Virus record (IMG/VR): IMGVR_UViG_3300002839_000006
Location: 1-64,000 of that record
Reading direction: 5' to 3' (one strand)
Source of the DNA: a virus
Taxonomy: Duplodnaviria; Caudoviricetes
DNA: 64,000 bases
In this document: in pieces, positions 8,311 to 28,287 of the stretch
Numbering within the stretch: position 1 is the first letter of the stretch
How the letters are laid out: every line of letters starts with the position of its first letter
Program-made: the position numbers and the translations under genes
Notes under the pieces: generated by a model
What the model saw: only the letters and a program-made list of their open reading frames with translations
What the model was told of the DNA's origin: nothing
Databases searched by the model: none

Positions 8311-8326
8311 TAAAATTAAAATATAA
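8311..8326 (-). promoter_or_regulatory. Recurrent promoter-like motif upstream of scaffold/MCP
   Basis: TAATTTTA core with TATATTT extension. Confidence 0.6.
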
Positions 8327-8345
8327 TTTTGAATAAATAAAATAT

Positions 8346-9170
8346 TTACAAAGAATTTTTAACTAATTTAATGACTTTATTTTTAAAATCACTGTCTCCA
8401 TCAAATAAACTCTTATGTTTCAATATATTATCTAATGCCTTTTTAATGTCAGGTAGGCTAATATTTTTTGGTTTCTTATCTAAACTTTCAGGTGTGAGTG
8501 GTTTTACTGCAGCTACATCCATAGATTTAGTTAATACCTCAAATACTTTATAGTCTTTACCTACCCTATACTTCTTACCTTTGTTCTCAAACTCCATAAT
8601 ATATTCTTTCTCATCTGAATCCTGATCGTAGGTAGGATCTATATAATCTTCCTTCTGAAGACCTTTAGCTATATCCGCATAAGAATTTCCGTTAACCGGG
8701 GAAAATGTTATGGCACAGTTAGTTATAAGTGCCCTGGTGATATGTTTTGGATTAGTAGTAGAACGATTCAGTGCTTTTCCTTCGATGCTCCAACCGACTT
8801 TTCTATCAGATCCAGACTCTTTCATCTCAATAATCTTATCCCAAGTGTCTCTTGCTATTTCACTGTTCTCCCATAGTTGTGCTTTTATATGGAATTCATT
8901 ATTTTTAATCTCAGCTTTAACAGGAGAGCCAATCCAGTATTTTGGGCTCCTTTTAGACAAATGTTCGTAATTTATCAGTCCATTTTTCAAAAAGTGGTCA
9001 ATCTCATATCCGTTAGGTTCTAATACTTCACCTTCTATATCTTGTGAATTATCAGAAGCCATCCCTTCAAGAAACATATTTTTATATCTATCTGATTTTG
9101 GTAATTTAGATGCTTTCTCTAATAATTCATCATTAATAGGGACAAAGAAATTAAATTTATTATCTTCCAT
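8346..9170 (-). CDS. Prohead (maturation) protease, HK97/U35-like
   Basis: LEGMASDNSQDIEGE, INYEH (His), GWSIEG (Ser) and ITFSPVN motifs. Confidence 0.88.
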   Translation of the reverse strand: MEDNKFNFFVPINDELLEKASKLPKSDRYKNMFLEGMASDNSQDIEGEVLEPNGYEIDHFLKNGLINYEHLSKRSPKYWIGSPVKAEIKNNEFHIKAQLWENSEIARDTWDKIIEMKESGSDRKVGWSIEGKALNRSTTNPKHITRALITNCAITFSPVNGNSYADIAKGLQKEDYIDPTYDQDSDEKEYIMEFENKGKKYRVGKDYKVFEVLTKSMDVAAVKPLTPESLDKKPKNISLPDIKKALDNILKHKSLFDGDSDFKNKVIKLVKNSL

Positions 9171-9182
9171 TTTATTTATCTA

Positions 9183-9620
9183 TTATTCACTAACGATGTT
9201 CTTCTCTAGTTTTGTATAGTACTTACTATCTTCCATCAGATGATCTTTTGTTATCTCACTTCTCTCTTCTTCATCACTCGTATGTTCTTTCTCTTCTTCC
9301 ATACCCATCTTGTACTGCTCCTGGAGTGCACTTACCTCTATGTTGTGATGTGCAGCTATATCTTCTAATGTCTTACCATCAGCTCTGCCACCGATCAACT
9401 TTTCTTTTTGTGCTTTCTGTATCTCATATCTCTCTTTTGCTGCATTGTATATCTCATCACTGATCTGATCCATTATATAGAGGTCAGATATGTGAGAGAA
9501 GGCTTTTTCTATGTCTTTTTCTTCGACAACTTCTGTCTTTGGATCGTCACTCTTTGTACTAAATCTTTTAAAGAACCCATCCAGTTCAAGAACTTGTTTT
9601 GTGTCTATCTTAGTTTTCAT
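9183..9620 (-). CDS. DUF5661-like protein, probable internal head protein
   Basis: MGMEEEKEHT...ITKDHLMEDSKYYTKL motif; IEKA and IQKA motifs. Confidence 0.6.
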   Translation of the reverse strand: MKTKIDTKQVLELDGFFKRFSTKSDDPKTEVVEEKDIEKAFSHISDLYIMDQISDEIYNAAKERYEIQKAQKEKLIGGRADGKTLEDIAAHHNIEVSALQEQYKMGMEEEKEHTSDEEERSEITKDHLMEDSKYYTKLEKNIVSE

Positions 9621-12147: not shown

Positions 12148-12154
12148 TATTTTA

Positions 12155-12170
12155 TAAAATTAAATATAAA
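12155..12170 (-). promoter_or_regulatory. Recurrent promoter-like motif, 7 nt before the ATG of the Nudix-zincin gene
   Basis: TTTATATTTAATTTTA on the coding strand. Confidence 0.6.
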
Positions 12171-12186
12171 TCTGATACAAACTTAA

Positions 12187-12942
12187 CTATACCAAAAATT
12201 CTTTATCTTTAAACTTACAATTTTCAAAGTGAAAACGATGCATGGCATTAATTCCTCCAATCTTACCACAATGAGGACACATAACCTTTTCCCTGGGTTT
12301 TCTCATTTTAGTTAATTGTTCTTCATTAAAACCAACTATTTCATACCACAATTTTATCTTTTCTTTAGATTCGTCTTTGTGAGTTTTATCTTTCATAGGG
12401 CTTATTCTACCTTTTTGACCCTCTGAGTTCTTTCTTCTCCACTCTTCACTTTGGCCACCGTTTATTTCATAATACCTTTTATGACTATCCCTCATATTCT
12501 GCAAAGATTCTTCTGAATAAATTCCTGTTTTACCTTTATTCCAAGCTATTCTTCCTTTCCCTCCTTTTGATACATTGTCTTTATGTTCCTGAGTTAATTT
12601 CTTACCTGTTAATGCTAAAGATATTTTTCTTAACCACTCTTCTGTAAAAACAGGAATATAGCCTTTATTTCCTTGACCACCTGCAGTAATATTATAAAAA
12701 GTTTCTAAATTAACCGCATCAAATTCTTTTATGATAGCTTCTTCTCTAGAATATGCTTCCAAATGAGTATCACAATATTCTAATATCTCCCTTTTAAAAT
12801 TTTTACGACCATACTTTTTAATTGCTTTCTCTAATACTAAACCCGACCCTAAATAGCCATCATTCAAATTTTTAGTAGTATGCTTACCTATATAAGCCTT
12901 ATCATTAACAAGATTAGTAGTAATATAAACAAAATGTATCAT
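12187..12942 (-). mobile_element. Free-standing GIY-YIG homing endonuclease with NUMOD3-like repeats and C-terminal Zn finger
   Basis: FVYITTNLVNDKAYIGKH; H..E.K..IS repeats; CPHCG...HFENCK. Confidence 0.85.
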
Positions 12943-13853
12943 ACTTCAAAAGTTTTATCCCCAACCGTTATTTTTATTTTAGACGTTCTAATTACTTTTC
13001 TCTCCCTATCTAAACTATATTCAAATCTATTTGTATCTTTATTCCACTTTTGACCAGCAAAAATAGGTTGTATATCACACCTACAATAAGGGTGATTTGT
13101 TCCTAAAACCGCTTTCCAATCGTCTACTTTCCTCCCTATATTTGTTCCATTCTGAATTAATGTAGACAACTTAAAAATAATAGGTTCACTCCCTACCCCT
13201 TGAGTTAAATGTAATTTAAGACAATGGCGACAGGCTGAATCAAAAGTATGTTTCCAACACAATGCTTCATCTCCATACTTCCTTATTATTTCAGATGCCC
13301 TACCCTGTTCATATATGTTCTGCATCTCAGTCACAACTATTCTCTTCCAGTCTCTATCCCACTCACCAGTTCTATGACCTAAATCACTTACTACTGAAGC
13401 TATGCTTTTCCTGTTCTTAATGCCTTCTGAGATTGTTTCTGATATGATATTCTTCTTATTCTCCTCAAGCATTATATCTCTGGTAGCACCAACTACTTTG
13501 TTTGCAAGTCCCTTCAGATGATTATAGGTGATTTCCCTGCTTATCTTATACTCTGCTCTTTCTCTTTCTGATAGTGGTATAAATTGTCCCCTATCCAAAT
13601 ATTTCTCAAAATCTTCATTGGTTAACTCTTTTGTCTGTTTCTCTTCTAATACCGCAGTTAACCTCCCGAGCAGAAAGTTCCTCATAAATGGTGGATATTG
13701 TTCTTCTAACTTCTCAATATCTATACCATAGTTTGTCAGAAACAGTTTATCTTCATCAGATAACACTTCTGTCCCCAGTGATGTGAATATCATAAAAGAA
13801 TAGTGATGTTGGATTATATCTACTATTCTCTGTATATCTGTTGTACTGAACAT
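12939..13853 (-). CDS. MuF/SPP1-gp7-like minor head (morphogenesis) protein
   Basis: DWKRIVVTEM, ACRHCLKLH and HPYCRC motifs. Confidence 0.8.
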   Translation of the reverse strand: MFSTTDIQRIVDIIQHHYSFMIFTSLGTEVLSDEDKLFLTNYGIDIEKLEEQYPPFMRNFLLGRLTAVLEEKQTKELTNEDFEKYLDRGQFIPLSERERAEYKISREITYNHLKGLANKVVGATRDIMLEENKKNIISETISEGIKNRKSIASVVSDLGHRTGEWDRDWKRIVVTEMQNIYEQGRASEIIRKYGDEALCWKHTFDSACRHCLKLHLTQGVGSEPIIFKLSTLIQNGTNIGRKVDDWKAVLGTNHPYCRCDIQPIFAGQKWNKDTNRFEYSLDRERKVIRTSKIKITVGDKTFEV

Positions 13854-14002
13854 TACTTACTCTTTAGTTTTACAAGTTCTCTTGTTATGTCTACCATCAT
13901 CTCTTTCATTTTATTCTCATGCATTTTGATTAGCCTATTTTCAATAGGTGCTTGAAGTGATGGGAAACGAATTGGGTCCTGATGTAAGTGTTCTTTACTC
14001 AT
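13853..14002 (-). CDS. Small hypothetical protein (49 aa)
   Basis: Manual ORF MSKEHLHQDPIRFPSLQAP...KLKSK*, with TAATG overlap onto the MuF start. Confidence 0.55.
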   Translation of the reverse strand: MSKEHLHQDPIRFPSLQAPIENRLIKMHENKMKEMMVDITRELVKLKSK

Positions 14003-14015
14003 TGTTTTTTATTTC

Positions 14016-14091
14016 TGGAGCGAGAGGTAGATTCGAACTACCGATCTTAAGATTATGAGTCTCATGTGTTAACCAACTGCACCATCTCGCA
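14016..14091 (-). tRNA. tRNA with CAU anticodon (Met or Ile2)
   Basis: Cloverleaf with TGAGA-CTCATAA-TCTTA anticodon arm, GGTAG-TTCGAAT-CTACC T arm and ..TCCA end. Confidence 0.88.
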
Positions 14092-14098
14092 CTATGTT

Positions 14099-14542
14099 TT
14101 ATTTCATAAAATTGTCTGCTTCTGCTTTTCTTCTTCTTATCAGTCCATTACTCTTTTTGCCTTTTGCAGTGATATAATGATTACACCACCAATTGTATAT
14201 TACTGATGGCTGTACCTTAGCATTAATATATGACATGATAGTTCTGCTTCCACCACAGTTATACCATAGTGACACCATAGAATCGAACTGGTTCTGTTTT
14301 ATGTCTACAGTTAACTTTCTGTTAATATCATCATCAAACTTGTCAATGTCATGCATGAAATAAACTTCTGCCTGTTCTGTTGTACAAGTGTCTCCCATCT
14401 GGACGCTATTTCCATTTGGATAATATGTTGTTCCCCATCCAATAGTTGGCTTGCCACCTTCATCATGATAGGCTATCAATCTTAGTTGTTCAAACCCTTT
14501 TATAAATCTCTCCCCTGCTAGTGATAATGAATAGTGTCTCAT
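14099..14542 (-). CDS. Endolysin, GH24 (phage lysozyme) family
   Basis: FEQLRLIAYHDEGGKPTIGWG (E-x8-D-x5-T), QNQFDSMVSLWYNCG and GLIRRRKAE motifs. Confidence 0.9.
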   Translation of the reverse strand: MRHYSLSLAGERFIKGFEQLRLIAYHDEGGKPTIGWGTTYYPNGNSVQMGDTCTTEQAEVYFMHDIDKFDDDINRKLTVDIKQNQFDSMVSLWYNCGGSRTIMSYINAKVQPSVIYNWWCNHYITAKGKKSNGLIRRRKAEADNFMK

Positions 14543-14545
14543 CTA

Positions 14546-15151
14546 TTACCAAATTTTAAATTGTACTGCGAACTTGAATATAGGGTGCTTGCTTAATGCA
14601 GGTATATATTCAATCTCTGGTGTGTATAACACATTCTTTTTTGTTTTGAATGTTATTCTACCATTAAGAGAAAACAAGTCTATATTCGCACCCAAACCAC
14701 CTCCAATGAATAACATACTCTTTAGTGGTTGTTGTGGATTGTTATTAATCGTTTGCACTGCCATTTTCCATACATACTTTCCAACACTTGAAATAATTTG
14801 ATTCTGAGTGATGCTGTCACGCAGTTCTAAGTATATCGTATCATTATCTAAGATGATTCTATTTATACCTGTTTTCTTAAAGAATGCCCTAATTATCTTT
14901 ATAGAATCAGTATGTGACATTACTGTATCATGTACCCATATTTTCTTTGTAATAGTATCACTTTTTATTATTTTTTTATAAATAGTGTCTTTTACTTTAA
15001 ATCTAATTGTATCGGTGTTTGTAATTTTTATTGTATCTGATTTCACTACTGGTGGTGCAGGGGTGAATATCTTGTTTAATCCCCAAAATGAAAATGCTCC
15101 CAATAAAAATATAAGAGCAACTCCAATCCATGTCCACGTTTTATTTGTCAT
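14546..15151 (-). CDS. Putative spanin-like membrane-anchored protein
   Basis: Single N-terminal TM helix, DT-rich repeats, beta-rich C-terminus; lies between holin and endolysin. Confidence 0.5.
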   Translation of the reverse strand: MTNKTWTWIGVALIFLLGAFSFWGLNKIFTPAPPVVKSDTIKITNTDTIRFKVKDTIYKKIIKSDTITKKIWVHDTVMSHTDSIKIIRAFFKKTGINRIILDNDTIYLELRDSITQNQIISSVGKYVWKMAVQTINNNPQQPLKSMLFIGGGLGANIDLFSLNGRITFKTKKNVLYTPEIEYIPALSKHPIFKFAVQFKIW

Positions 15152-15152
15152 G

Positions 15153-15650
15153 TTATTTTATTTTAAGAAAAATATCATCCACTTTACTTTTAATAGAATC
15201 CCAAATAGACCTGAATATACTTGTTCCAGTGATTCGACTTATATTCTCGTAAATTGATTTTAGTTCTGTTGCTCCTATAAATAGTGCTACTATACGAGGA
15301 CATTCAACACCCTCAGCTATTATCTTTTGAAGTATATATGCTGCTATTATTGCCAATGAATAGAAAAAGAATTTCTCAATAGTCCTTCGCATCTTCTTAG
15401 CAGTAAAATGTTCTCCATCTCTATATGAAGCATAACCACCAGTAATGAAATCAAGTATTATAAGTCCAAATACTAGATACACATACTCTTTAATAGGTGC
15501 TAAGAATAAAAATACGAATGCTACGAGGGTGCTAAGTAATTCCTTGATGATATCTATCCAAGGTGTGAGTCTATATGGCATTGGGTTGGTCATGTTTATA
15601 CTCATTGCTGTCCAAAATAATTGGAGACTCCATATTTCAGAAGTCTCCAA
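15153..15650 (-). CDS. Phage holin (family-4/toxin-secretion-lysis type)
   Basis: LIILDFITG...KMRRTIEKFFFY and ELKSIYENI motifs; several TM segments; true start probably internal. Confidence 0.75.
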   Translation of the reverse strand: METSEIWSLQLFWTAMSINMTNPMPYRLTPWIDIIKELLSTLVAFVFLFLAPIKEYVYLVFGLIILDFITGGYASYRDGEHFTAKKMRRTIEKFFFYSLAIIAAYILQKIIAEGVECPRIVALFIGATELKSIYENISRITGTSIFRSIWDSIKSKVDDIFLKIK

Positions 15651-15663
15651 GATATTTAATTAC

Positions 15664-16029
15664 TTAGGCTTTCGGAGGTTTTACAGCAAACTGTTTGCTG
15701 ATATATACTACAAGTATTGCACCTAATCCATATAGAAGTGTTTTTATATCAACAAATGTACCTGTTAAAGTTGCTGCTGCTACAGTGGCAAAACTATTAC
15801 CTATCATAATAACTGCACCCTTGATAATATCCTTCCAGTTAATAGCTCCTGCTACAGATGTTGTGACTAACCACATACTCTGACCTACATATACTAAAAC
15901 TGTACCGAGTGTAGTAATCCCTAGTACTTCCCACCCTACTGTTGTGATAGGAAATCCTGATGCTTGTATAGTTGCTAATACAAACATAAATACTGTTGCT
16001 AATAATCCTTTTAAAATTGTTGTGTTCAT
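15664..16029 (-). CDS. Multi-TM membrane protein (holin/antiholin candidate)
   Basis: About four hydrophobic segments as an internal duplication; first gene of the lysis cassette. Confidence 0.5.
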   Translation of the reverse strand: MNTTILKGLLATVFMFVLATIQASGFPITTVGWEVLGITTLGTVLVYVGQSMWLVTTSVAGAINWKDIIKGAVIMIGNSFATVAAATLTGTFVDIKTLLYGLGAILVVYISKQFAVKPPKA

Positions 16030-16057
16030 AATTGTCTATTTTTAAGTTTTTACTTTA

Positions 16058-16072
16058 TAAAATTAATAAAAA
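16058..16072 (-). promoter_or_regulatory. Recurrent promoter-like motif upstream of lysis cassette
   Basis: TTTTTATTAATTTTA. Confidence 0.55.
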
Positions 16073-16199
16073 TTCTTATTGTTTTAAAATTTTATTATAT
16101 AAACTGTCATTTCAATTAATAGTATCTGCTTTTATTTTATTTATAATTCTTTTAAATAAGGTTAACTAATTAATAATCAACTAGTATTGTTTATAACAA

Positions 16200-16261
16200 T
16201 TATAAATTAAGATTTATTTTAATAGAAACATAAGAACTATAGTTTTTTTATATTAATTTTA
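16200..16261 (+). promoter_or_regulatory. Bipartite promoter-like motif on the plus strand
   Basis: TTATAAATTAAG (16200-16211) and TATATTAATTTTA (core 16254-16261). The only plus-strand copy noticed, and it precedes the only convincing plus-strand gene. Confidence 0.7.
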
Positions 16262-16290
16262 CGGTCTAAAAACCAAAATAAACCAAAACC

Positions 16291-16689
16291 ATGAAAAAGA
16301 TCATTTTAATCACAGCACTGGTATTAGTCGCAATGAGTTTGTCGGCACAAGTAATTAATTATACAGAGTTGGCCAAATTCAACATCAACAAAGACAATGG
16401 ATTTACGTCTTATGTTTCCAGTAACAATACTACATTCAGGGTTAATGACAGATTAACACTAAAAGACCAAACAAGTAGTAGGCTTAAATATATCTACCTG
16501 TATGAAGAATATTCCATTAGCGATGTTGTAATGTCAATGTCAACAAAATACCTTACAATCAATAGAATTACTGTTATTCACACTCCCTCCAATAGATTTG
16601 CCGTATTGTTTAATTGCAGCGACCCACAGGGGTTAAGTACTTATGTCATTAGCGTAGAGCAAGCCATCCTAGCCAAAGAGATCATATAG
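16291..16689 (+). CDS. Secreted hypothetical protein (Sec signal peptide, Gln at +1)
   Basis: MKKIILITALVLVAMSLSA|Q; own promoter motif. Confidence 0.75.
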   Translation: MKKIILITALVLVAMSLSAQVINYTELAKFNINKDNGFTSYVSSNNTTFRVNDRLTLKDQTSSRLKYIYLYEEYSISDVVMSMSTKYLTINRITVIHTPSNRFAVLFNCSDPQGLSTYVISVEQAILAKEII

Positions 16690-16695
16690 ATAGGG

Positions 16696-17970
16696 TTATA
16701 TATCGATCATATTATTAATTATTATCTTTACGTTCCCCTTACTACAATCGTATTTCTCTCTGATCCATATATCGTATGGATCAGAGGTTATGTCGTGGAT
16801 ATTTGTAGTTGTTCCCTTTTCTAATTCAAAAGACAAAAAATTCTGAAATAAACTCAATATTGTTCCTGCTAATCCTCCTGTTGCGCTAACTATTACTCTT
16901 GCAATACTTAATAGTGGTTTATTGCTATCATCTTTATAGTTGATATTAACACCCGTAATACCCTTATTTGAGGGAGGCATATGTATTTTGATGATAATTG
17001 AATCACCGTCATGTATTGACATTGTATGTGTTTCTTTCGTATCCATATAATATCCATTTTCTATCACATACGCCAAATACACGTCTGCATCCCCATAGTC
17101 TTGCGCTGGACTAGGATTATATGATACCGTCAAAGAATTTGTGCAACCCGACCCACCTGAAGGAATAGCAGTACAGCTACCATTAGCATTCGCATAAGCC
17201 TGTGAGTTATAATATACATCTAAATACGCCTGATTGTCCGCATCAGCCTGACTGAGGAATGATCCATACTTACCTGCGGATATGGAATATGTGACTATAG
17301 TTCCAGCATAGCCAGAAGAACAATCACTTTTTATTCTATCAAATGAGTAGGCACTGCTAGTATAATACGCTCCCGATCCCTCTATTATTCCCTGAACCAC
17401 AACCGCATCATTGGTAGAATGCCATGTAAACGAATATGTTATTGTCTGACTATATCCAGATACTGAACTGTTATAGGTAAGTCCATTATTCCCAAATACA
17501 TAAATTGTCGCACCGTTCCCATTACTTCCGCTATTTGCTGAACGTACCGTTACTATAATATTGTCTCCATCATTAACAGTAAAAGAACCAGAGGAATAGG
17601 TTGTGGCGGTAAGCATTAACGTATAATTTTTTTGAATTGTCATATACGCATCTGTAATCCAGCTATCTTCTGTAAATGACCAACTTAAGGTATTAAATGG
17701 TGTATGTCCGCTTGCCACTAAATCTATTTTAGGAATCCATTGGTTGTCGGTAAATGCACTTAAATATGAAGTATTTAAATCCAAATAATACAAAGCAGCC
17801 TGTTTTGTCATCCAATTAATTCCGCTGGGCATTGGAACTTTTTGATATAACCCACTGCCCTGAGCATCTGCAAAACTCACCCACTGGTCAGAAGTCAAAT
17901 TACTCCATCCAATCTGAGCCTGACCAAACGAGCATAAAAACAGTAGGGTTATTAATAGTAACTTTCTCAT
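16696..17970 (-). CDS. Secreted beta-rich protein with DUF5977-like repeat
   Basis: Signal peptide ..GQA|Q; CSSGYAGTIVTYSISAGKYGSFLSQADADNQA...YANANGSC. Confidence 0.65.
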   Translation of the reverse strand: MRKLLLITLLFLCSFGQAQIGWSNLTSDQWVSFADAQGSGLYQKVPMPSGINWMTKQAALYYLDLNTSYLSAFTDNQWIPKIDLVASGHTPFNTLSWSFTEDSWITDAYMTIQKNYTLMLTATTYSSGSFTVNDGDNIIVTVRSANSGSNGNGATIYVFGNNGLTYNSSVSGYSQTITYSFTWHSTNDAVVVQGIIEGSGAYYTSSAYSFDRIKSDCSSGYAGTIVTYSISAGKYGSFLSQADADNQAYLDVYYNSQAYANANGSCTAIPSGGSGCTNSLTVSYNPSPAQDYGDADVYLAYVIENGYYMDTKETHTMSIHDGDSIIIKIHMPPSNKGITGVNINYKDDSNKPLLSIARVIVSATGGLAGTILSLFQNFLSFELEKGTTTNIHDITSDPYDIWIREKYDCSKGNVKIIINNMIDI

Positions 17971-17972
17971 AG

Positions 17973-18626
17973 TTAAAAGAATAAAAATCTGTGATGTTTC
18001 TTAATTCCGTTTAGTTTTTCCAAATATTCAACCCTCGCTGTAAGTTCCTGAATAGCTTTAATCTCTAATCCGTGTAAGGAATAAAGATTTATAGCATCTT
18101 TTTTTTCACCCATTAAAATATACCTAGAAACACTTGCTGGAATTTCATCAATGATAAATCCTAATGTTTCATTGATAGTTGGTTTAGTCTTGTAGTTAAA
18201 ATCCCTTAGTTGAAATTTACTTAACTCAAATGTTGCCGAACCTGTCCAGTCTTTATGAACATTTTTTAAACTTCTGAGTGAGTTAAAACCACCCCCTGCT
18301 GCTGTAATTGAACCACCTAAAACTCCGTTTCCTGTTATGTTAAAATTAGCAGGTTGGGCAGAGGTTCCATTGTTTATGAATTTATTGATACCACCTATTA
18401 AGATTACATCGGAATTTAATGTACAGGTGTTTAGGGTTTTGGTTGAAGCTAGTCCTAGAAATGCAGAATACACATTACCGTTATTGGCATTGGTTATAAT
18501 CTTTCCTCTTGGAATTGTCTCTCCGAAAGTAGTCACACTGTCAGCAACCCTTACATTACCCGAAGGCGTGACTTGTGCAAATGAAATTGTGCTAATAAAT
18601 AGCAATAATATTAAAATCTTTTTCAT
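17973..18626 (-). CDS. Fibre-like protein with signal peptide and C-terminal peptidase S74-like intramolecular chaperone
   Basis: ..SFA|Q; SLKNV...FNYK...LGFIIDEI...INLYSLHGLEIKAIQELTARVEYLE. Confidence 0.7.
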   Translation of the reverse strand: MKKILILLLFISTISFAQVTPSGNVRVADSVTTFGETIPRGKIITNANNGNVYSAFLGLASTKTLNTCTLNSDVILIGGINKFINNGTSAQPANFNITGNGVLGGSITAAGGGFNSLRSLKNVHKDWTGSATFELSKFQLRDFNYKTKPTINETLGFIIDEIPASVSRYILMGEKKDAINLYSLHGLEIKAIQELTARVEYLEKLNGIKKHHRFLFF

Positions 18627-18630
18627 GTTA

Positions 18631-20589
18631 TTAATATAAGAATGAGATAGTTACGACATCATAAGCATATACAGGAAGTGTAACTTGAACTGTTGCGCCA
18701 CTTACAGTATAATTTGCAGGGTCAAGTGTTGAACCATTTAGGGAAACCCTTACGCCTGTTGCATCTTTTGGTGTATTTGAAAGCGTGTTTACTTGACCTG
18801 TTGAACCACTTGCAGCTTCTGCAAATTTCTGAGTTTTGAGATGGTCGTTGTAAAGTGTAGGTTTGTTTTGAATAAAAGTACCTCCCGAAGTTGCATTCCA
18901 ATCAATATAGGCTGCCGCTAAACCTGTTGATGTTCCAGTTAATGCACCTGTAAATCCAGTTGATGTAACAGAAGTTAGTCCTGCAATAGTTGTTGCTGTT
19001 GCACCTAATGCAATATTAGTTGAACCAATAGTAAGACTTGAATTAGTTAACCTTGCATTTGCTAAAGTTCCTGTCCATCCAACTGTTATACTTGCTGCAT
19101 TTAATAGCGAAGTTGAAGCCGAACCTCCTAAAGTTAAAGTTACATTTGTATCGTCTGTTTTTGTCAAGGCATTACCTGTAATTACTGCGGCAGGTATTCT
19201 CTCCCAAATAGTACCATTGTAACTTGCGTCATCACCTACATTAAAGGCTATTCCACCTGCACCAAAATTTGTAGTACCTGCTGTTGTACACCTATAAAAC
19301 CATCCTGCCGTTCCTGTGCCATTTGCAAGTGTCGGAGTGTTCGTATTTGCATTCCATGTTCCTTTATAAACTTGACTTGTTGCTACTGCCGCCCATGTTG
19401 CAACCCCTGAACCGTTTGTTTTTAGAAAGTATCCATCTACTGCACCTGTTGTTATAGTGATTACAGGTGTACTAATTGAGCTCGAAGCATTAAACTGACT
19501 AGCTGCAACGGTTGATGAAAAGGTGGCAACAACTCCATAAAGCATACCAGTCAAAGCCTGACCACTACCTGCTGATAGGGGGAGATAACCACCACTTACA
19601 GCAGGAGCAGCACCAATATATGATAAAACCGCAGTAGAATTAAACCTATAAACAGTTCCATCGGCAGCTTCCCCTAATATTCCATCTGTTAATCCTGATG
19701 CTTGAAGTCCTGTGAAATTACCCGCTACACCCTGCCATTGACCTGAATTATCAGCAACTCCGTGCAAAGCAAGAGCCCCAATACTATTATATGAAATAGT
19801 CTTAGCTGCTGAACCATTAAAAGTACCACCACTTGCATCACCTGAACCTGAATTGTTAAAGGTTAGGGAATTAGGAGTGTTAAAAGCAGGTAAAGCAGCA
19901 CTAGTCCAAGCTGAACCATCTGAAGTTAATACGTTGCCACTTGTCGAGGGTGTTACGGCTGCAATAAAATCAGTTGTTGCCGAATTTGCAGCACTACCAA
20001 AAGTTCTGTAATTTAGTTTTGTGGCTAAAGATGAAGTTAGTCTGTCCCTACGAACATACCCATCAGTGCCTATACTGTCAGATTTATCCTTTTTTGATAA
20101 TGCTTTAAAGTTGGTGTAAAACCCATAACCCGCTGTACTATCATTGCTTAGCTTGTAGCTACCTGCTGCTTGTTTATTATTAAATGTAGTCCAGTCGGCA
20201 GCACTTAAAGCACCTCTATTAGAAGCACTTGCAGTAGGTACTTGTAGGGTAATTACAGGTGTTGTAGTTCCCGTTGCTACTGTACTACTTAAATCTGTTC
20301 CTGTTGTACCTAAGGTTAAAGCAGCTACAGAAGTTACCGTACCACCACCATTAACTAAATCTATATACCCTGCTGCCAAAGCTGTAGTTATGGTATAAGA
20401 AGAAGTCAATGCAGTATTCACCCTCCATATTTTCTTAGTTGCTACATCATAAATTTCATTCCCTACCGAGAAGTTCTGATTTAGTGCAGTAGTAGCATTG
20501 GCTATTCTTACTGAGATAATAGGTGAAGTTTGAGCGTAAATGTTAACACTCAGTAAAACTGCTATTAAAAAACTTAGTATTTTTTTCAT
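18631..20589 (-). CDS. Tail-fibre-like Thr/Gly/Ala-rich protein with signal peptide
   Basis: ..IYA|Q; GTVTSV, GALSAADWTTFNNKQ, GNVLTSDGSAW and YKGTWNANTNTPTL fibre motifs. Confidence 0.7.
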   Translation of the reverse strand: MKKILSFLIAVLLSVNIYAQTSPIISVRIANATTALNQNFSVGNEIYDVATKKIWRVNTALTSSYTITTALAAGYIDLVNGGGTVTSVAALTLGTTGTDLSSTVATGTTTPVITLQVPTASASNRGALSAADWTTFNNKQAAGSYKLSNDSTAGYGFYTNFKALSKKDKSDSIGTDGYVRRDRLTSSLATKLNYRTFGSAANSATTDFIAAVTPSTSGNVLTSDGSAWTSAALPAFNTPNSLTFNNSGSGDASGGTFNGSAAKTISYNSIGALALHGVADNSGQWQGVAGNFTGLQASGLTDGILGEAADGTVYRFNSTAVLSYIGAAPAVSGGYLPLSAGSGQALTGMLYGVVATFSSTVAASQFNASSSISTPVITITTGAVDGYFLKTNGSGVATWAAVATSQVYKGTWNANTNTPTLANGTGTAGWFYRCTTAGTTNFGAGGIAFNVGDDASYNGTIWERIPAAVITGNALTKTDDTNVTLTLGGSASTSLLNAASITVGWTGTLANARLTNSSLTIGSTNIALGATATTIAGLTSVTSTGFTGALTGTSTGLAAAYIDWNATSGGTFIQNKPTLYNDHLKTQKFAEAASGSTGQVNTLSNTPKDATGVRVSLNGSTLDPANYTVSGATVQVTLPVYAYDVVTISFLY

Positions 20590-20590
20590 C

Positions 20591-21994
20591 TTAGTTCTGT
20601 ATTTTTATTTTATCGTAAGTCCTTGTATCTGCCTGTAAGGTAATTGAGGTAGTGCCTACCCCTGACCAAATATCACTCGAAATTGAATTGCCATTGTAAA
20701 AAACGTTGGAAATATCTGTGAGTGGAAATGGGATCATAAAAGTAGTCACCCCAGAAGTTGTGACTGAGATTTCATACATTATTGAATAGGCTGTGGTTTT
20801 TACTCTCCCCCATTGAACTCCATTTGAGATAATCCAGTCACCTACCCCATAAGTTAGTCCTGATTGAGTTCCTGCCGTGTTTACAATATAGTACCAACCT
20901 TTAGTTGTGTCTGCGTTTGGGATAGAGGGTGTATTTGTAGCTGCATTGTAAACTCCTTGATATTTGACTGCACCTATTAAAGCTGCATTCATTTGAGATA
21001 GAGGTACTTTACCATTTACGAGTGAAGCCACACCGTTTAAAGCACCCCTGTCAGAAGTATTTATTTTGCTTAATGCCTTGAAATTGGTGTAAAAGCCTTT
21101 GTCTAACACACTATCGTTAGCTGCCTTATATAAAGTGCTATCTTTGCTTCCATCTGCCTTTAGAAACTCTGTATTTAAACCGTTTTCTGCTATGAAAGTT
21201 TTCCCTCTCACATTTCCTTTTAAATAGGTGTCAGTAGTCAAATCTGTACCTATGGTTGTCGTATTCGAACCATTACCTACTCCATATGTCCCTATCACTA
21301 TTTCATTCTCAATACTATCAAGTTTGGCTCTTGTGAATGCCCCTATATAAATACAGTTGTTTAAATTTCTTGCCCCAGTAATTCCATCTGTTATATGACT
21401 CCCTGCTTCTTGTCCTACTGATGTATTATAATTCCCATTCTGGTTATGATACAGAGCTGAGTATCCATTGGCAGTATTACCATTGGCATACTTAGCTGAT
21501 CTTAATGCATATGCTCCAGAGCCTGTATTATTTACTCCATATATAGTTATTGAATCCAGTGCAGCTGAACCAAGTGTTGTATTGTAGTTCAAGTCACTCT
21601 TCAAACCCATTGCCCCATTGAAGAAATATCCCTGCCCTGAATTAATAGAACCTGCAATGTTTATATTAGCATTCTGAGGTACTGTTTTTTGATTCCATAT
21701 ATAGAAGGTTGAACCTGTTGCTGGAGCTTTACCTGCTACCATTGCATCAACCTGTGCTTTCTTATATACAAGTAACATCACTGAATCAATATTGTGTTTC
21801 AACTTATCCATTGAAGCAAGATCAGTCCATTTATAGGTGACTCCTTTATATATCCATACAACTGAATCTAATGTGTTATAGCCAAATGAAGGGTTACTTA
21901 TAGTCTTAAAAGTTGACCCTACTGGAGGATTCTTTTGTGAAAAAGAAAACGTTACTACCAATGATAGTAATAACGTTAAAAGTATTTTCTTCAT
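20591..21994 (-). CDS. Tail-fibre/trimeric beta-helix-like protein with signal peptide
   Basis: ..SFS|Q; NTANGYSALY..NTSVG repeats, FLKADGS, LVNGKVPLSQ and YQGVYNAATNTP motifs. Confidence 0.7.
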   Translation of the reverse strand: MKKILLTLLLSLVVTFSFSQKNPPVGSTFKTISNPSFGYNTLDSVVWIYKGVTYKWTDLASMDKLKHNIDSVMLLVYKKAQVDAMVAGKAPATGSTFYIWNQKTVPQNANINIAGSINSGQGYFFNGAMGLKSDLNYNTTLGSAALDSITIYGVNNTGSGAYALRSAKYANGNTANGYSALYHNQNGNYNTSVGQEAGSHITDGITGARNLNNCIYIGAFTRAKLDSIENEIVIGTYGVGNGSNTTTIGTDLTTDTYLKGNVRGKTFIAENGLNTEFLKADGSKDSTLYKAANDSVLDKGFYTNFKALSKINTSDRGALNGVASLVNGKVPLSQMNAALIGAVKYQGVYNAATNTPSIPNADTTKGWYYIVNTAGTQSGLTYGVGDWIISNGVQWGRVKTTAYSIMYEISVTTSGVTTFMIPFPLTDISNVFYNGNSISSDIWSGVGTTSITLQADTRTYDKIKIQN

Positions 21995-22007
21995 ATATTA
22001 GTATAGT

Positions 22008-22133
22008 TTAGTCTATTGTATTTCTTGTTTCAACCTTAGTCCACCCATCAGGCAAATCTTCGTATCTCAATGGATGCTTTAATTCCCATCCAATCCAAAG
22101 CCAACTTATTGCGAATATTATTAGTATTATCAT
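22008..22133 (-). CDS. Small membrane protein (41 aa)
   Basis: Manual ORF MIILIIFAISWLWIGWELKHP...TID*. Confidence 0.45.
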   Translation of the reverse strand: MIILIIFAISWLWIGWELKHPLRYEDLPDGWTKVETRNTID

Positions 22134-24113
22134 TTAATAAGTTATTATTACCCCATTATGAAACAGGGGTGAACCATTGTGAAATACAGGACTAGCAAAT
22201 GGATGCTGATCAACCATTAGTACTACTGATGTATAAGGTTGCAAGGTCACAGATATGGCGTATTTAGTTCCTTTCACATCAATCATTGGACGACTTAATG
22301 TTACTGTTTTTGCTGTTGTAGTGGCATTATATTCAAATTGCAAATCGTCTGTCATAGTAATTGCTTGAGGTGATTTGTGGGAATTGGCATCCTGACCTGA
22401 ATAGGCCTGCCATTGTGTAAGTGTGTAATGATATAGGGGATTACTCCACCCATTAGGCTGAAGATAAAACGTCTGATTATCATCTATTGGTCTTGCGTAA
22501 TAATTATTATCAAACGTACCCATCGTTGGAAGTGTCGCCTGTAAAGTTATTAAATTTACAACATACTGATTTGCATCTTTAGACAAAAATATATTGTTCG
22601 TAAGTAAACAATTTGTAATAGCATCATTAGTAGCATCATCCTGTGTGTAAAATTGTATCTTATTATTGTAAACAGTGTTACTAGTAATTGTGATATAACT
22701 TGCATTATGAAGCAAAATACCATTACCCGCACAATTAGCCATTGTGTTGTCCGTTATTTCTACATTTTTAGCATTGTCATCCATATAAATACCATTGGCA
22801 GGAGTGTAACTTGTACTATTGGTTCCTGCAAAAGCTCCAATCCCGTTTAATACAATATTTCCTGTTATTACGTTACCATAAGATAAACCGCCTGTATATA
22901 TACCGCCTCCATCTTGAAGAACTGTACAAAAAGTATCTATAAAGTTATTTTTTATAAGTGCGGAATCCCCTGAAAAATATATTCCATTATAGCCTGTTTT
23001 TATGATTCTATTATATTCTATAATTAACCCCTTGTATGAATTTGCTTTCAAAATACCCACGCGACCGCTTACTCCAGTTTCACCCATTCCTGGATAAATT
23101 CCTGTATTTTGAATAGTATTATTTCTTATTGTAGAATATTCAACATCATAAATCAGATTAACGCCAGTACTATTTGAGTTTGATATGATACAATTTTCAA
23201 TAGTACTATAAGGAGTACCTAATTGAATCCCTTCTATTCCACTAAAATTGACTGTGCAATTTTTTAAAATAATATCCCTCAACCCACCATATTCAGTAAG
23301 AATAGAATATCTATTGGCGCCCGTAAACGAAAGTCCATCGATGGTAATAAACGCAGCATGAATAGTCGCCAAAACATCCTGAGAAGCTACCTGTATATTT
23401 GTTGGAATGCTTGTACTATAAACTCTTATCTTTTTAGTAGAAGGGTTGTAATACCATTCATTTTGCTGATCAAGAGTTCGGGTATCGTTTTGAATAAAAA
23501 AACCAAAACCATCTGTTGGTGTAAAAGTACTTACGTATGGACTGTATGTTAATGTGTTTCCTGATTGAGATGTAACAAAAGATCTATCTAAAATCCATTG
23601 CACAGTACGTACAACTACCTCTGCCCCTGTCCAGTCAGTCGTACCTGTTAAACTACTGCTTGTAATTGAGGTTTTTCCAGAATGAGATTGATACGTTAAA
23701 TATCCTCCATTAGCTGCATCAGCATTAGGATAACGCCCCATTGGAGTATTTACTCCATTTATAACAACCATATTGCAAGTTGAAAGCGTTGATACAGCTG
23801 AAGTGCTTTCCCAAATATTGCCACCTAAATTCGTCCAGGCAGTAACAGTAGTAAAACCTGTAATAATTGGATTTTCCCCCGTACCATAAGCTCCATAAAT
23901 TATTGGATGTCCTGATGTCCCTGAGTTATGGGGAATTATTGTACCGATAAATGTTTCACCACGATTAAATAAAATCTGATCATCAGGGGCAAAAGTGGCT
24001 GCGTTGACTGCTGCTATGGTAGAATAATCGCCACCACTCGCAGCGACATGGTAAACAGCTGTCTGGCCTATCAAGCTAAAGAAAATAAATAATATTGTTA
24101 GTATCTTTTTCAT
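22134..24113 (-). CDS. Secreted right-handed parallel beta-helix protein (polysaccharide lyase/depolymerase-like)
   Basis: Signal peptide; PDDQILFNRGETF and PIIYGAYGTG motifs, then many Asn-ladder repeats. Confidence 0.8.
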   Translation of the reverse strand: MKKILTILFIFFSLIGQTAVYHVAASGGDYSTIAAVNAATFAPDDQILFNRGETFIGTIIPHNSGTSGHPIIYGAYGTGENPIITGFTTVTAWTNLGGNIWESTSAVSTLSTCNMVVINGVNTPMGRYPNADAANGGYLTYQSHSGKTSITSSSLTGTTDWTGAEVVVRTVQWILDRSFVTSQSGNTLTYSPYVSTFTPTDGFGFFIQNDTRTLDQQNEWYYNPSTKKIRVYSTSIPTNIQVASQDVLATIHAAFITIDGLSFTGANRYSILTEYGGLRDIILKNCTVNFSGIEGIQLGTPYSTIENCIISNSNSTGVNLIYDVEYSTIRNNTIQNTGIYPGMGETGVSGRVGILKANSYKGLIIEYNRIIKTGYNGIYFSGDSALIKNNFIDTFCTVLQDGGGIYTGGLSYGNVITGNIVLNGIGAFAGTNSTSYTPANGIYMDDNAKNVEITDNTMANCAGNGILLHNASYITITSNTVYNNKIQFYTQDDATNDAITNCLLTNNIFLSKDANQYVVNLITLQATLPTMGTFDNNYYARPIDDNQTFYLQPNGWSNPLYHYTLTQWQAYSGQDANSHKSPQAITMTDDLQFEYNATTTAKTVTLSRPMIDVKGTKYAISVTLQPYTSVVLMVDQHPFASPVFHNGSPLFHNGVIITY

Positions 24114-24114
24114 G

Positions 24115-25302
24115 TTAATAATTTAGTATTTTTTTTACGGACACCTGATCAAAACATATTCCATTAGTATCATTAGTGACATCTACATTAGCCTGAAAAT
24201 AAGGTGATATATGCGTACCGCTAGATTGAAAAATCACCGTATATAATGTCCATGATGAAGATGAAATTGTAAAAGGTGAGAATTGTGTCGAAGAGGCTTC
24301 AAACAACGCCCCTCCAGTGGCTTTAATGTTTTTAGCATAAAAGGACAAAACGTACCAATCACCACTTGTGGTGGGTACCATCTGCCATATTTGTCCACTA
24401 AGACCAGCAGCATTAGTTATACTTTGGCTTGAAGTTCCAGCGTATGGAGTGGCTGTGTTTTCAGAAAGATTACCGGCTATATAAGTCCAACTAGGAGCAT
24501 TTCCTGCCACATACGTCCCTTCCACACTGCCATTAACTACTAATTCAGGGCCATAGAAGTAACCTGATGCAGAAACACTATCAGCAGCCCAAACAGGGCT
24601 TTTCCAGTAAGAATTAGATTTTACCCAAAGTCTTCCAGAAGTACTATCAATATATATATTTCCTGTAGCTGGTGGAGAGGCAAGAACACTTAAAGAATCA
24701 GCAAAACTACTACCATAACCTGCATGATCCAGTACATACTTAGGAGTGGCGTAACCACTACCATCAGTCTTGTTGCTATCGGCCTTTAGTGGAACCAAGC
24801 CTGATAGCTCAGTACCACTTGCAAGCGTGACCTCAATCAAGCCTACTCTGTGATTTGTAGCATATTTAGTACTGTCTTTTCTATTTAATTTTGTAAGTAA
24901 ACTATCAGATAGATTTGTTATAGTTGATTGTGCCTGATTATGTGCTGTCGGAGTTCTTGAATCGCTTAGCCTGCTATCATTCCCTACAGCAGCGGTTGAA
25001 GAAGTTGTTCCAAATCCAGGAAAAGAAACCTTTGAATTAATGCGATTTGACAAAGATATTGTATCTATTGCATTTCCTGTAGCTAAATTATAAGCTACTC
25101 CTGCTTTATAGAAAAGAAAAACACCCCCAACTATACCCGTAGAATCAATTTGTGGGCCATGTACCCCTATCTGAAAAGAGCCAATTACTTTAACAGGTCC
25201 CATAAATAATCTATACCCTTGTTGTTTAGAACTATTGGGAAATGTAATTTGGGATATACCAAACAGTGGGAATAATAAAAATAATAGAATTAGCTTTTTC
25301 AT
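24115..25302 (-). CDS. Secreted fibre-like protein with C-terminal carbohydrate-binding-like (CBM4/9-type) domain
   Basis: ..GIS|Q; AAVGNDSRLSDSRTPTAH fibre motif; ELVVNGSVE...W..Y..FYAK...WTLYTVIF..FDQVSVK. Confidence 0.6.
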   Translation of the reverse strand: MKKLILLFLLFPLFGISQITFPNSSKQQGYRLFMGPVKVIGSFQIGVHGPQIDSTGIVGGVFLFYKAGVAYNLATGNAIDTISLSNRINSKVSFPGFGTTSSTAAVGNDSRLSDSRTPTAHNQAQSTITNLSDSLLTKLNRKDSTKYATNHRVGLIEVTLASGTELSGLVPLKADSNKTDGSGYATPKYVLDHAGYGSSFADSLSVLASPPATGNIYIDSTSGRLWVKSNSYWKSPVWAADSVSASGYFYGPELVVNGSVEGTYVAGNAPSWTYIAGNLSENTATPYAGTSSQSITNAAGLSGQIWQMVPTTSGDWYVLSFYAKNIKATGGALFEASSTQFSPFTISSSSWTLYTVIFQSSGTHISPYFQANVDVTNDTNGICFDQVSVKKILNY

Positions 25303-25306: not shown

Positions 25307-25768
25307 CTAAAGTGTTACATTGATTTTTGCATTAACAATTTCTTCAGTTGTGCCTATAATTACGTCATAAACACTTCCGTTTAAGACATAAGCTACTGAT
25401 CCTACGTTCTGTTTTACTCCCCCAAGGAATACCACAATATTACTAGGTTCTGTATTGATAGGTGGTGTAAAGTCGTTACCTGAAATAGTTGTATCACTAT
25501 TAGCAACAAGGGTAGCAGTAGCTGTACATATTCCTCCTCCACTACCTGCCCCAGCACCTAACCAACTTGTATTCCAATAATTCACAAATGCTGCAACTGA
25601 TGCAAACCCTGTAAGTGTACTATCTAAACAATTTCTATAATCAGTCTCTATGAATGGTGTACTCTCATCAGCGAATCTTATTCTTATGGTATTCCCACAA
25701 GTTGTCAATATAGGGTTAGCTCTGTTATATAGTATCCCATCTATCTTTCCTGTATCGAATGTGTACAT
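25307..25768 (-). CDS. Hypothetical (probably virion-associated) protein
   Basis: Beta-rich ORF heading the fibre cluster; no signal peptide. Confidence 0.5.
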   Translation of the reverse strand: MYTFDTGKIDGILYNRANPILTTCGNTIRIRFADESTPFIETDYRNCLDSTLTGFASVAAFVNYWNTSWLGAGAGSGGGICTATATLVANSDTTISGNDFTPPINTEPSNIVVFLGGVKQNVGSVAYVLNGSVYDVIIGTTEEIVNAKINVTL

Positions 25769-25799: not shown

Positions 25800-26597
25800 T
25801 TATTTGTTATTCACAGTATGACCTCTAACTTCTGATCTTTTAGAATCTTCATGTTGAGAAATATCTTCTGAAGTTATACCACCATATTCATTTCCATTTC
25901 TTTTAGATTTTATTCTGTATATAAAATCACCATCTTTAGTCTCAGTAACTTTTGTGACAGTACCCTTTAGATCAACCCCATTTGATTTAAATGATACTAC
26001 ATTATCAATTTCATATTCTGCCTTCTTAGCTTTCTTCTCAACAGGTTTCTCTTCTTTCTTTTTCTCACTGCTTGTTCCAGCTGTTGGACCTTCTGTAGGT
26101 TCTGTCACTTTACTTTTATCTTTATTATCCCAAGTTGACATTTTATCTTTCTCACCTTCTGGTGCCTTGAATGTGTCCTGTGCTTCCTCTGACTTCCTAC
26201 GCTGTAGTTCTTTATGTGCTGCCTCTCTTACTGCAGGATCAGTAGATACCTTAGTAGCATTCATTAGGGCTGCCTCGGATGCCGTCTTAGCAGCTGTCCC
26301 CAGATCTTGTGGTTGTGCTGTAGCTTTACCCTGTTCAGCTCTCTTATCAAGTGCTGCTTTAGCTTCTGGGTTCTCAGGTTTACCTGGTGCATCGCCACTT
26401 TTTACTGGCACCCATCCTGTAGCTTCTTTTCTCATTTTAACACCACTCCACTCCCTTATCTCACCCATCTGAGCTAATTTGCCTTTTATAATGTCCTCTT
26501 TCATTTCATTGAATGTAGGTGCAAGATTTTTCTTAATTTGATCTTCTTGTTGTTGTTGTCCTTTTCTTATTTCGTCTTGGATATTCATTTTAATCAA
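25800..26597 (-). CDS. Putative internal head (cargo) protein
   Basis: IRKG and IIKG motifs followed by KLAQMGEIREWSGVKMRKEATGW; low complexity and charged; coupled to portal. Confidence 0.5.
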   Translation of the reverse strand: MIKMNIQDEIRKGQQQQEDQIKKNLAPTFNEMKEDIIKGKLAQMGEIREWSGVKMRKEATGWVPVKSGDAPGKPENPEAKAALDKRAEQGKATAQPQDLGTAAKTASEAALMNATKVSTDPAVREAAHKELQRRKSEEAQDTFKAPEGEKDKMSTWDNKDKSKVTEPTEGPTAGTSSEKKKEEKPVEKKAKKAEYEIDNVVSFKSNGVDLKGTVTKVTETKDGDFIYRIKSKRNGNEYGGITSEDISQHEDSKRSEVRGHTVNNK

Positions 26598-28287
26598 TAT
26601 TTACGTTTTCTTCGATATATTTTAGACACTGCATAGTCAATGGATCGTCTTTACTCATCAGTGACTTCTTGAATGCCTGTGCTGGTGCACCTGATTGATC
26701 TTCCTGGTTGAACTTATCAAATGGATTTTGAGCACCTGCTTCTGGTTCACCTGTCATCTCATCTACTGCCTCGTTACTTCCCTGCCCACCCATCATCTTC
26801 ATTTGTTGTGCCTGTAGATAAACTGGATTCAATATAGTGTCAGTCTTTTCATTGAAAGGTCTTCCCATCTCAGCTTCAAATGCTGCTTCAAATGGCATCT
26901 GACCTGAAGCTATCTTCTTAGCTATAAGGTCAACCAACTCCATCTCGTCCTGTGTATCAATACCAGTAAACACCAATTCATAGTCTGAATCTATCTCTGA
27001 TACCAACCACTTGGTCAATACCTTTTCCCAGAATAGGAGTATTGGCTTCAACCCTTTCTTTTTACTATGCTGTATTCTTTCTTTCTGTCCTGCCTGACCA
27101 AATAACTGTGCTGACTTCTGGAACTGATAACCTAACTCTGAAGGATCAATAGTGAATACTGAGCATAACATAATAATAAGAAATTCCATCCATTGTTGGA
27201 ACTCCATATCCTTATTTGTTCCCTGTAAATCTATCCATTCTAAGTCTATCCCACTGAAGATCGGTAATTTATGAGAATTTCCGACACCAGCTATCATCTG
27301 TCTCCATGTCTGTCTAAAATCATTCAGAACATCCATATTGACACCACCATCCTTAATATTTATGAATCCCTTAGGGTTACTACCCTGCTTAAAGAAGTTA
27401 CCGTTGTATTGCATTCCCCACAACGACCAAGTGATAATATCCAGCAGCACCTCTACCTCAGATGTACCATATCCATTCTTATCAATAGATGTGGCTTTAT
27501 TGCGTTGAGCATACATCAGCTCCCAAGGATAGTAAACTATCTCCTGTTTGGTTACTGGGTTGACCATCACGTTGCTCTGGTATACCTGAGCGTACCGTGG
27601 ATACTGGCCAAACTGTTCTGTATACTTCTGCTTAGTCTGCTCTCTGAAACGTGGATCTATCGTCTCTAATATCCTTATAGTTGAAGCATCTATTGCTGTG
27701 TGTCCTATTAATTCAAATCTTCTGTTACGTTCACATTCAGCTGCCAACTGGTCATAGGTCATTGAATCTCTTAATGCTTTGCGGGTGAAATCTGCTAAGT
27801 CATCAGTAGTATCCCATTTACCTTTTAGTCCACCATTCTCTAAATAGTTGACTATATATTCTATTTTCTTCTTGTCTTCCCTGTTTTCTTTTTGTTTCCC
27901 AGTATCAAAAATAGATCTCTTCTTACGTATAGTATATCCCTCTGATTTATTGTCATTGGTGAAACGTAGGAAGTTCTGTACCTGGAATATTCTTGTATTT
28001 ATGATAGACCCTACAATAGGTGTATCACCTACCTTCTTCAATACATCAAATGATACTCGCTTCCGTTGTTGCTTATACCCATTAGTTGAATAGTAAGCTT
28101 CAAAAGGATCGAATACGAATGACTTGATGTCCTTCTTCTTTTTATTCTTTTCTAACTCCTGTAGATAATTTTGAGCCTTGTAGATGTCATTAACATCAGT
28201 TGACATTAACTGCTTCTCCAGAAGGAGACTTTTCTCTATCTGGAGCTTAGCAGTTTGTTCGTCTATTTGTTCTATTTCTCTATTCAT
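26590..28287 (-). CDS. Portal protein
   Basis: IDASTIR, GYGTSEVE, NFFKQGSNPKG, KDMEFQQWMEFL..DPSELG and GLKPIL motifs. Confidence 0.9.
   Translation of the reverse strand: MNREIEQIDEQTAKLQIEKSLLLEKQLMSTDVNDIYKAQNYLQELEKNKKKKDIKSFVFDPFEAYYSTNGYKQQRKRVSFDVLKKVGDTPIVGSIINTRIFQVQNFLRFTNDNKSEGYTIRKKRSIFDTGKQKENREDKKKIEYIVNYLENGGLKGKWDTTDDLADFTRKALRDSMTYDQLAAECERNRRFELIGHTAIDASTIRILETIDPRFREQTKQKYTEQFGQYPRYAQVYQSNVMVNPVTKQEIVYYPWELMYAQRNKATSIDKNGYGTSEVEVLLDIITWSLWGMQYNGNFFKQGSNPKGFINIKDGGVNMDVLNDFRQTWRQMIAGVGNSHKLPIFSGIDLEWIDLQGTNKDMEFQQWMEFLIIMLCSVFTIDPSELGYQFQKSAQLFGQAGQKERIQHSKKKGLKPILLFWEKVLTKWLVSEIDSDYELVFTGIDTQDEMELVDLIAKKIASGQMPFEAAFEAEMGRPFNEKTDTILNPVYLQAQQMKMMGGQGSNEAVDEMTGEPEAGAQNPFDKFNQEDQSGAPAQAFKKSLMSKDDPLTMQCLKYIEENVNID

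Follow-up and report, generated by a model that had tools for sequence, protein, structure and literature searches.

Seven adjacent phage genes with Bacteroidota-type leaders include five for fiber- or spike-like proteins that may be assembled by way of the periplasm

The stretch of DNA analyzed here (the window) extends over 64 kb from the start of an IMG/VR virus record of 81.7 kb (IMGVR_UViG_3300002839_000006), the completeness of which is estimated at 74%. Between the portal gene and the holin/endolysin cassette lies a block of seven genes (16291–25302), each starting with a leader of the type found on secreted proteins of Bacteroidota, and five of them encoding proteins with fiber, β-helix, or glycan-binding domains. 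On comparative evidence, the leaders are very probably genuine signals for Sec and signal peptidase I, by which the seven proteins would be exported. For the fiber-like proteins, the chances appear about even that they are not only exported but subsequently joined to the particles, upon lysis or later, as accessory parts for host recognition. Assembly of tailed phages is, by textbook account, wholly cytoplasmic, and virion fibers normally do not carry signal peptides.

All seven open reading frames (ORFs) were found where the first-pass annotation had placed them, with starts as it had described. Each leader consists of M-(K/R)-K, 12–16 hydrophobic residues, and a small-x-small site followed by glutamine (LSA↓Q, GQA↓Q, SFA↓Q, IYA↓Q, FSFS↓Q, LIG↓Q, and GIS↓Q; the arrow denotes the predicted cut). 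The charged n-region, the 8–16-residue hydrophobic core, and the small residues at −1 and −3 that characterize Sec/signal peptidase I substrates are present in all seven, and Gln at +1 is clear in six and ambiguous in the β-helix protein (see below). When the 117 ORFs of the full 81.7-kb record were scanned for hydrophobicity, these seven were flagged together with one more of the same kind (46757–47062); the remaining flagged ORFs encode lysis-type or small transmembrane proteins. A run of seven adjacent leaders cannot be due to chance. A further hydrophobic segment is absent from six of the proteins, and the 424-amino acid (aa) protein has a borderline one at residues 353–374. In an all-against-all BLAST comparison, the bodies of the seven proved mostly unrelated. 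Gene duplication as the source of the leaders was ruled out because neither bodies nor leaders show any likeness beyond composition.

The Gln at +1 corresponds to the Q-rule of signal peptidase I substrates in Bacteroidota (PMC10653852). Among distinct ORFs of at least 150 aa counted in the collected phage loci, a small-x-small↓Q motif at positions 15–30 was present in 39 of 60 leader-flagged, compared with 65 of 855 unflagged ones. The Gln that signal peptidase I of Bacteroidota typically exposes is cyclized to pyroglutamate. The C-terminal sorting domain of the type IX secretion system (T9SS; PF18962/TIGR04183) was not matched by any of the seven proteins at E ≤ 0.1 in searches of Pfam and NCBIfam. 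Thus, until lysis, the proteins are expected to stay in the periplasm.

The bodies had all been described as fiber-like, which holds for five of the seven; the 132-aa and 424-aa proteins lack such domains. The 395-aa protein (24115–25302, minus strand; leader GIS↓Q) is composed of a conserved N-terminal module, a tail-fiber repeat, a helical stalk, and a β-sandwich tip of the carbohydrate-binding module (CBM) type. It matched PHROG tail families and the tail collar fiber of PDB entry 9d93 (E = 5e-4). The CBM-like feature noted earlier was borne out by structure prediction: the C-terminal domain was modeled by AlphaFold2 with a predicted local distance difference test score (pLDDT) above 90, and Foldseek matched the tip to CBM16, CBM4, CBM22, and a porphyran-binding CBM (E ∼1e-8, TM score by target up to 0.8). 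Leaders are present on all homologs that share the N-terminal module, and the distal parts of these homologs are variable; a constant N-terminal module with variable ends is the usual signature of attached fibers.

The 467-aa protein (20591–21994, minus strand; leader FSFS↓Q) and the 652-aa protein (18631–20589, minus strand; leader IYA↓Q) are mosaic fibers. They have in common a widespread fiber module of 60–100 residues, which also occurs in hundreds of ordinary leaderless tail fibers; a second module of the 467-aa protein is common with gp31 of the Cellulophaga phage Ingeline. The 652-aa protein matched a PHROG minor tail protein family (2e-14), and the conserved N-domain directly behind its leader recurs in the short, 217-aa fiber (17973–18626, minus strand; leader SFA↓Q) and in other leader-bearing fibers. 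The 217-aa protein, found in 3 of 401 Bacteroidota genomes, has a tail-type C-terminus that had been called S74-like. PHROG tail C-terminal families were indeed matched (E between 6e-6 and 8e-5), but Peptidase_S74 of Pfam (PF13884) was not. A tail-fiber match in the PDB was weak (E = 0.15), and a Ser-x4-Lys arrangement is visible by eye where the Ser-Lys dyad of S74 would be expected; this region is a possible chaperone of the S74 type.

The 659-aa protein (22134–24113, minus strand) is a right-handed β-helix, as had been proposed (Pfam Beta_helix, 1.6e-18), and resembles spikes or depolymerases. It does have a leader, but the cut may fall three residues later than assumed, after GQTA; in bacterial homologs, the mature chain begins at the aligned position without Gln. 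More than 1,600 homologs were found. The family is bacterial and very large, many members being encoded on contigs of hundreds of kb to more than 1 Mb or on chromosomes of Chitinophagaceae, Prolixibacteraceae, and Cyclobacteriaceae. Leaders are present on 95 of the 120 best homologs, and the T9SS end domain PF18962 on many. The phage protein belongs to the same family as the T9SS-secreted right-handed β-helix proteins of Chitinophagaceae, Prolixibacteraceae, and other Bacteroidota, and the leader has been kept. It is 43–60% identical to many of them, and over its core (residues ∼85–630) 100% identical in aa sequence to one, a 1,028-aa protein of the T9SS cargo type that contains fn3 and PF18962 domains; the two differ in the first 80 and the last 30 residues. 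Complete identity over ∼545 residues between differing ends indicates that the core was exchanged very recently with a secreted bacterial protein. In the phage protein, the leader sits at the homologous place, and a 30-aa tail has replaced the fn3 repeats and the T9SS end domain of its bacterial relatives, as in forms of ∼650 aa on viral contigs. The short C-terminal tail (window 22134–22230) may serve as a docking peptide. Such T9SS-domain-free forms on viral contigs (L188–L192) have short tails with repeated His/Lys-x-Gly and a final aromatic residue. The identical core is also a pointer to a T9SS-bearing host within the Bacteroidota.

The DUF5977 protein of 424 aa (16696–17970, minus strand; leader GQA↓Q) had likewise been counted among the fibers. 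Its domain match is well above the gathering score (PF19404, residues 203–267, 71.8 bits versus a cut-off of 25), but AlphaFold2 modeled the protein as a string of several β-sandwich domains and not as a fiber, and Foldseek returned generic pilin- or adhesin-like matches with low TM scores. It is probably an envelope protein. The 14 members of its family are encoded on contigs as long as 114 kb, and DUF5977 was present in 3 of 201 sampled Bacteroidota genomes. In 4 of 10 full-length relatives, a lipobox replaces the signal peptidase I site, directly before the same conserved mature N-terminus. Since the two leader types are interchangeable in this family, export would be the function of the leader. 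The weakly hydrophobic segment at residues 353–374, a possible membrane anchor, is more pronounced in some relatives and was poorly modeled by AlphaFold. The 132-aa protein (16291–16689, plus strand; leader LSA↓Q) has no fiber feature, and the fiber-like body ascribed to it did not withstand the searches, those of Pfam and PHROG included, which matched nothing named. It and the DUF5977 protein would be envelope proteins of another kind; that they act in exclusion or release is a guess.

Export is thus well supported by three independent lines of comparison, namely, homology to Sec-dependent T9SS cargo, alternation of signal peptidase I and lipoprotein leaders, and the Q-rule. T9SS cargo crosses the inner membrane by Sec, so the homologous leaders on such cargo must be functional. 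The first-pass annotation had proposed export to the periplasm or the surface; the comparative evidence speaks for the periplasm, and the surface is unlikely given that the T9SS end domain is missing from all seven proteins.

Nearly all genes of the window are encoded on the minus strand. In the direction of transcription, the portal gene (26590–28287, minus strand) is followed by genes for a 265-aa and a 153-aa protein and then by the six minus-strand leader genes, encoding proteins of 395, 659, 467, 652, 217, and 424 aa (25302–16696), which are spaced by 1–4 nucleotides save for one gap of 139 nucleotides. The plus-strand gene for the 132-aa protein is convergent to that of the DUF5977 protein and divergent from the lysis genes. 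The lysis cassette (14099–16029, minus strand), which travels with the block, encodes a 121-aa protein with multiple transmembrane segments, a holin, a 201-aa protein with an N-terminal transmembrane segment, and an endolysin. Beyond it lie genes for a MuF-like head protein, a homing endonuclease, a Nudix fusion protein, the prohead protease, and a major capsid protein of the SU10 type. The block was therefore correctly placed beside the holin/endolysin cassette and inside the head module. It is encoded on the strand of, and within, the late virion operon and is not adjacent to baseplate genes. Because the record opens inside a tail sheath gene (in window 1–414, the match is to the N-terminal part of a 645-aa sheath protein from a relative), the phage is contractile-tailed, and its tail and baseplate module falls outside the record.

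The first gene of the block (25307–25768, minus strand) is leaderless. Its 153-aa product is a chimera: residues 1–82 match the conserved post-portal gene of the clade, and residues 83–151 match a 113-aa ORF that precedes a pair of leader genes in relative G001. It marks the recombination joint; the protein is also a possible cytoplasmic adaptor. Relatives of the clade were found through the portal protein. In G003 (101 kb, portal 51% identical), the portal region leads straight to the MuF-like gene, and leader-bearing fibers are absent. In G001 (94 kb, portal 71% identical), two leader-bearing proteins are joined to the lysis cassette before the sheath gene, and leaderless genes are present behind the baseplate wedge; a third relative has the lysis cassette before the sheath as well. 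Leader genes and lysis genes thus behave like a single movable block, which is accessory in this clade. The clade also has conventional leaderless baseplate-proximal genes.

Leader-bearing genes of this kind recur in other uncultured phages, on viral contigs unrelated to this clade. In L138, L107, L193, and L191, they lie behind tape measure or baseplate genes, the canonical fiber position, and in L125, L105, and L190 directly before the lysis genes. The exact proteins of the block recur on several public contigs of up to 110–114 kb. A 175-kb contig (L178, IMGVR_UViG_3300037156_000269) encodes five large leader-bearing proteins at ∼8300–17900, behind baseplate-like genes. Gln at +1 is missing from most of these leaders, a sign that phages infecting another phylum may share the habit.

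Comparable runs are present in cultured Cellulophaga phages. In Ingeline (NC_062749), each of gp31–34 opens with a leader, and behind the run come transmembrane proteins, an endolysin-like gene, and a lipoprotein; gp31 is matched by the 467-aa protein over the one module (E = 5e-17). In phi19:1 (KC821607), gp101–104 have leaders, three of the four with Gln at +1, and are located behind the tape measure, gp97, and gp98. All four are annotated as "structural protein" on the basis of experimental tandem mass spectrometry (MS/MS) proteomics, according to the notes in the GenBank record, from which the virion evidence was taken throughout. The same leaders and MS/MS annotation are found for gp85–87 of phi18:3 (KC821620), a run that lies among nonstructural genes, before transmembrane proteins, and is thus set apart from the structural genes as is the present block. 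These phages, like the one studied here, encode adjacent large fiber-, lyase-, or spike-like proteins with Bacteroidota-type leaders, mostly with Gln at +1, and have small transmembrane and lysis genes directly after them. Their runs hold three or four such proteins, whereas the present block has seven genes, lies between portal and head-maturation genes, and includes two nonfiber proteins. In addition, the Cellulophaga proteins are structural by MS/MS records, whereas the phage studied here is known from its genes.

The statement of the first-pass annotation that such genes had not been characterized as a system agrees with a literature search, which found no paper on exported fibers as such and only passing mentions (PMC8776804, PMC10367356, PMC10653852). 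Bartlau et al devote one sentence to "signaling peptides" on lyase-domain proteins of Ingeline and Nekkels (PMC8776804), and Matrishin et al mention leaders that obey the Q-rule on genes of Porphyromonas phages without an assigned function (PMC10367356). The cases from phages of Porphyromonas gingivalis (PMC10653852, PMC10367356) have the same leader anatomy and Gln at +1, and there, too, phage genes make use of the host's rule; unlike the proteins of this block, they are read as envelope modifiers, and fibers or spikes are not named. The nearest cellular parallel is provided by the MAT fibers of Bdellovibrio bacteriovorus, which are cell-encoded, tail-fiber-like trimers with a signal peptide (PMC10769870). 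They share the order of leader, conserved domain, and variable tip, with or without an S74 chaperone. The likeness is one of published architecture; MAT fibers are bacterial and are displayed by the predator cell, not attached to a virion. Late phage proteins that use Sec are familiar in the form of endolysins with signal peptides or signal-arrest-release (SAR) sequences (for example, Lys44 of Oenococcus phage fOg44 and Lyz of P1), which wait in the periplasm for the holin. These are lysis enzymes and not host-recognition proteins, and the endolysin of the present phage has no leader.

From the leaders, domains, gene layout, recurrence, and exchange of the β-helix core, we infer the following course of events. 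Sec would translocate the seven proteins to the periplasm, where signal peptidase I would trim them before the Gln and a pyroglutamate cap would form. They would be held there until the envelope is breached by the neighboring holin/endolysin cassette. The five fiber-like proteins, namely, the CBM-tipped fiber, the β-helix spike, the two mosaic fibers, and the short fiber, would fold outside the cytoplasm, meet the freed contractile-tailed particles at the time of lysis or afterward, and dock to them as accessory fibers or spikes. Of the three fates that had been proposed for the exported proteins, attachment to particles is favored over activity as a free enzyme or as a decoy, by analogy with phi19:1 and phi18:3. 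For this phage specifically, particle association is put at slightly below an even chance. Several points count against this reading or limit it. Direct homologs of the seven proteins among the MS-verified Cellulophaga proteins were not found, the sole sequence link to cultured phages being the module that Ingeline gp31 has in common with the 467-aa protein. The MS/MS annotations do not report N-termini, so that an unexported pool could be what assembles. The lipoprotein relatives of the DUF5977 protein fit a role in the envelope better than one in the virion. By analogy with its relatives, the phage, whose own tail module lies outside the record, would also have ordinary leaderless fibers. 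Finally, host O-glycosylation finds no support here as a reason to export these proteins: the motif D-[ST]-[AILVMT] is enriched in the 467-aa and 395-aa proteins (7 observed versus ∼1.6 expected), but not in the other five (19 versus 12 in total over the seven).

The most serious alternative, although rather unlikely, is that export is not followed by incorporation into a particle, and that the proteins instead act as free proteins in the periplasm or on release by lysis. They might clear capsule or matrix for the release of progeny by glycan-binding or depolymerase activity, mask receptors or act as decoys to exclude superinfecting phages, or remodel the envelope. The location of the block would be well explained in this way, as it sits and moves with the lysis cassette, at a distance from the tail module, as would the origin of the β-helix core in a secreted bacterial protein, the existence of lipoproteins among the DUF5977 relatives, and the fact that G003 manages without leader genes; moreover, the Porphyromonas phage genes have been read as envelope modifiers (PMC10367356). 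Against this, the equivalents in phi19:1 and phi18:3 are annotated as virion components by MS/MS, leader proteins are the only candidates in fiber position in several uncultured siphovirus-like contigs, and the constant N-terminal module with variable distal parts is the pattern of attached fibers. Free action fits the DUF5977 and 132-aa proteins better than the fibers.

It is less probable still, and indeed improbable, that the leaders do not export the functional pool and that assembly is cytoplasmic, the hydrophobic segment remaining uncleaved or being cut by a phage protease and serving in assembly or as a tether to the membrane. The fibers of all tailed phages studied are, as is generally known, assembled in the cytoplasm, and the MS/MS annotations would accommodate uncut N-termini. 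However, selection for Gln at +1 is sensible only if signal peptidase I cuts there, the DUF5977 relatives show interchange with lipoboxes, and the homologous leaders on T9SS cargo must function. That the block is passenger DNA from a host, or an assembly chimera, without a role in the phage can be regarded as highly implausible. One gene is identical to a bacterial-type protein over ∼545 residues, and the G+C content of the block is slightly above that of the neighboring genes; but the genes are on the strand of the late operon, are spaced by 1–4 nucleotides, and start directly behind a gene conserved in the clade, several contigs of up to 110–114 kb encode these very proteins, and four of the seven are typically found on phage contigs and seldom or never in bacterial genomes.

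Taken beyond this phage, attachment of exported fibers to particles leads to a tentative proposal that seems somewhat less probable than its parts: tailed phages of Bacteroidota and, to judge from other contigs, of some other phyla may run a periplasmic arm of virion assembly, in which fibers and spikes that are exported by Sec, trimmed by signal peptidase I, and capped with pyroglutamate dock onto particles built in the cytoplasm once holin and endolysin have merged the compartments. Such an arm would explain why leader genes travel with the lysis cassette. If true, maturation of fibers and spikes would be periplasmic in a large group of phages, against the textbook view of cytoplasmic assembly, and virion proteomes would have to be read differently. 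Host-range proteins intended for engineering or enzyme discovery would have to be expressed with export, pyroglutamate, and possibly disulfides. Phages could, furthermore, capture secreted glycan-binding proteins of their hosts ready-made, and the spike core identical to a protein of the T9SS cargo type is a direct example of such borrowing. As the cultured Cellulophaga phages share the layout, the question is open to testing at once.

A search of the phage collection at the DNA level with this sequence gave no match, and a metagenome scan with the G001 sheath returned only G001 and two short contigs and no tail module of this phage. Sites found in a scan for σ70 promoters and terminators, a model that does not include Bacteroidota promoters, were no more common than in shuffled sequences. 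The eighth leader gene of the record (46757–47062, minus strand; leader SLA↓Q), which encodes a 101-aa protein, lies outside the block in the early/replication region; G001 has three small leader-bearing genes similar to it. The window also contains two homing endonuclease genes of the GIY-YIG type. That at 12187–12942 is wedged between the MuF-like gene and the gene for the Nudix fusion protein, and that at 63402–64166 is so labeled from its similar N-terminus.

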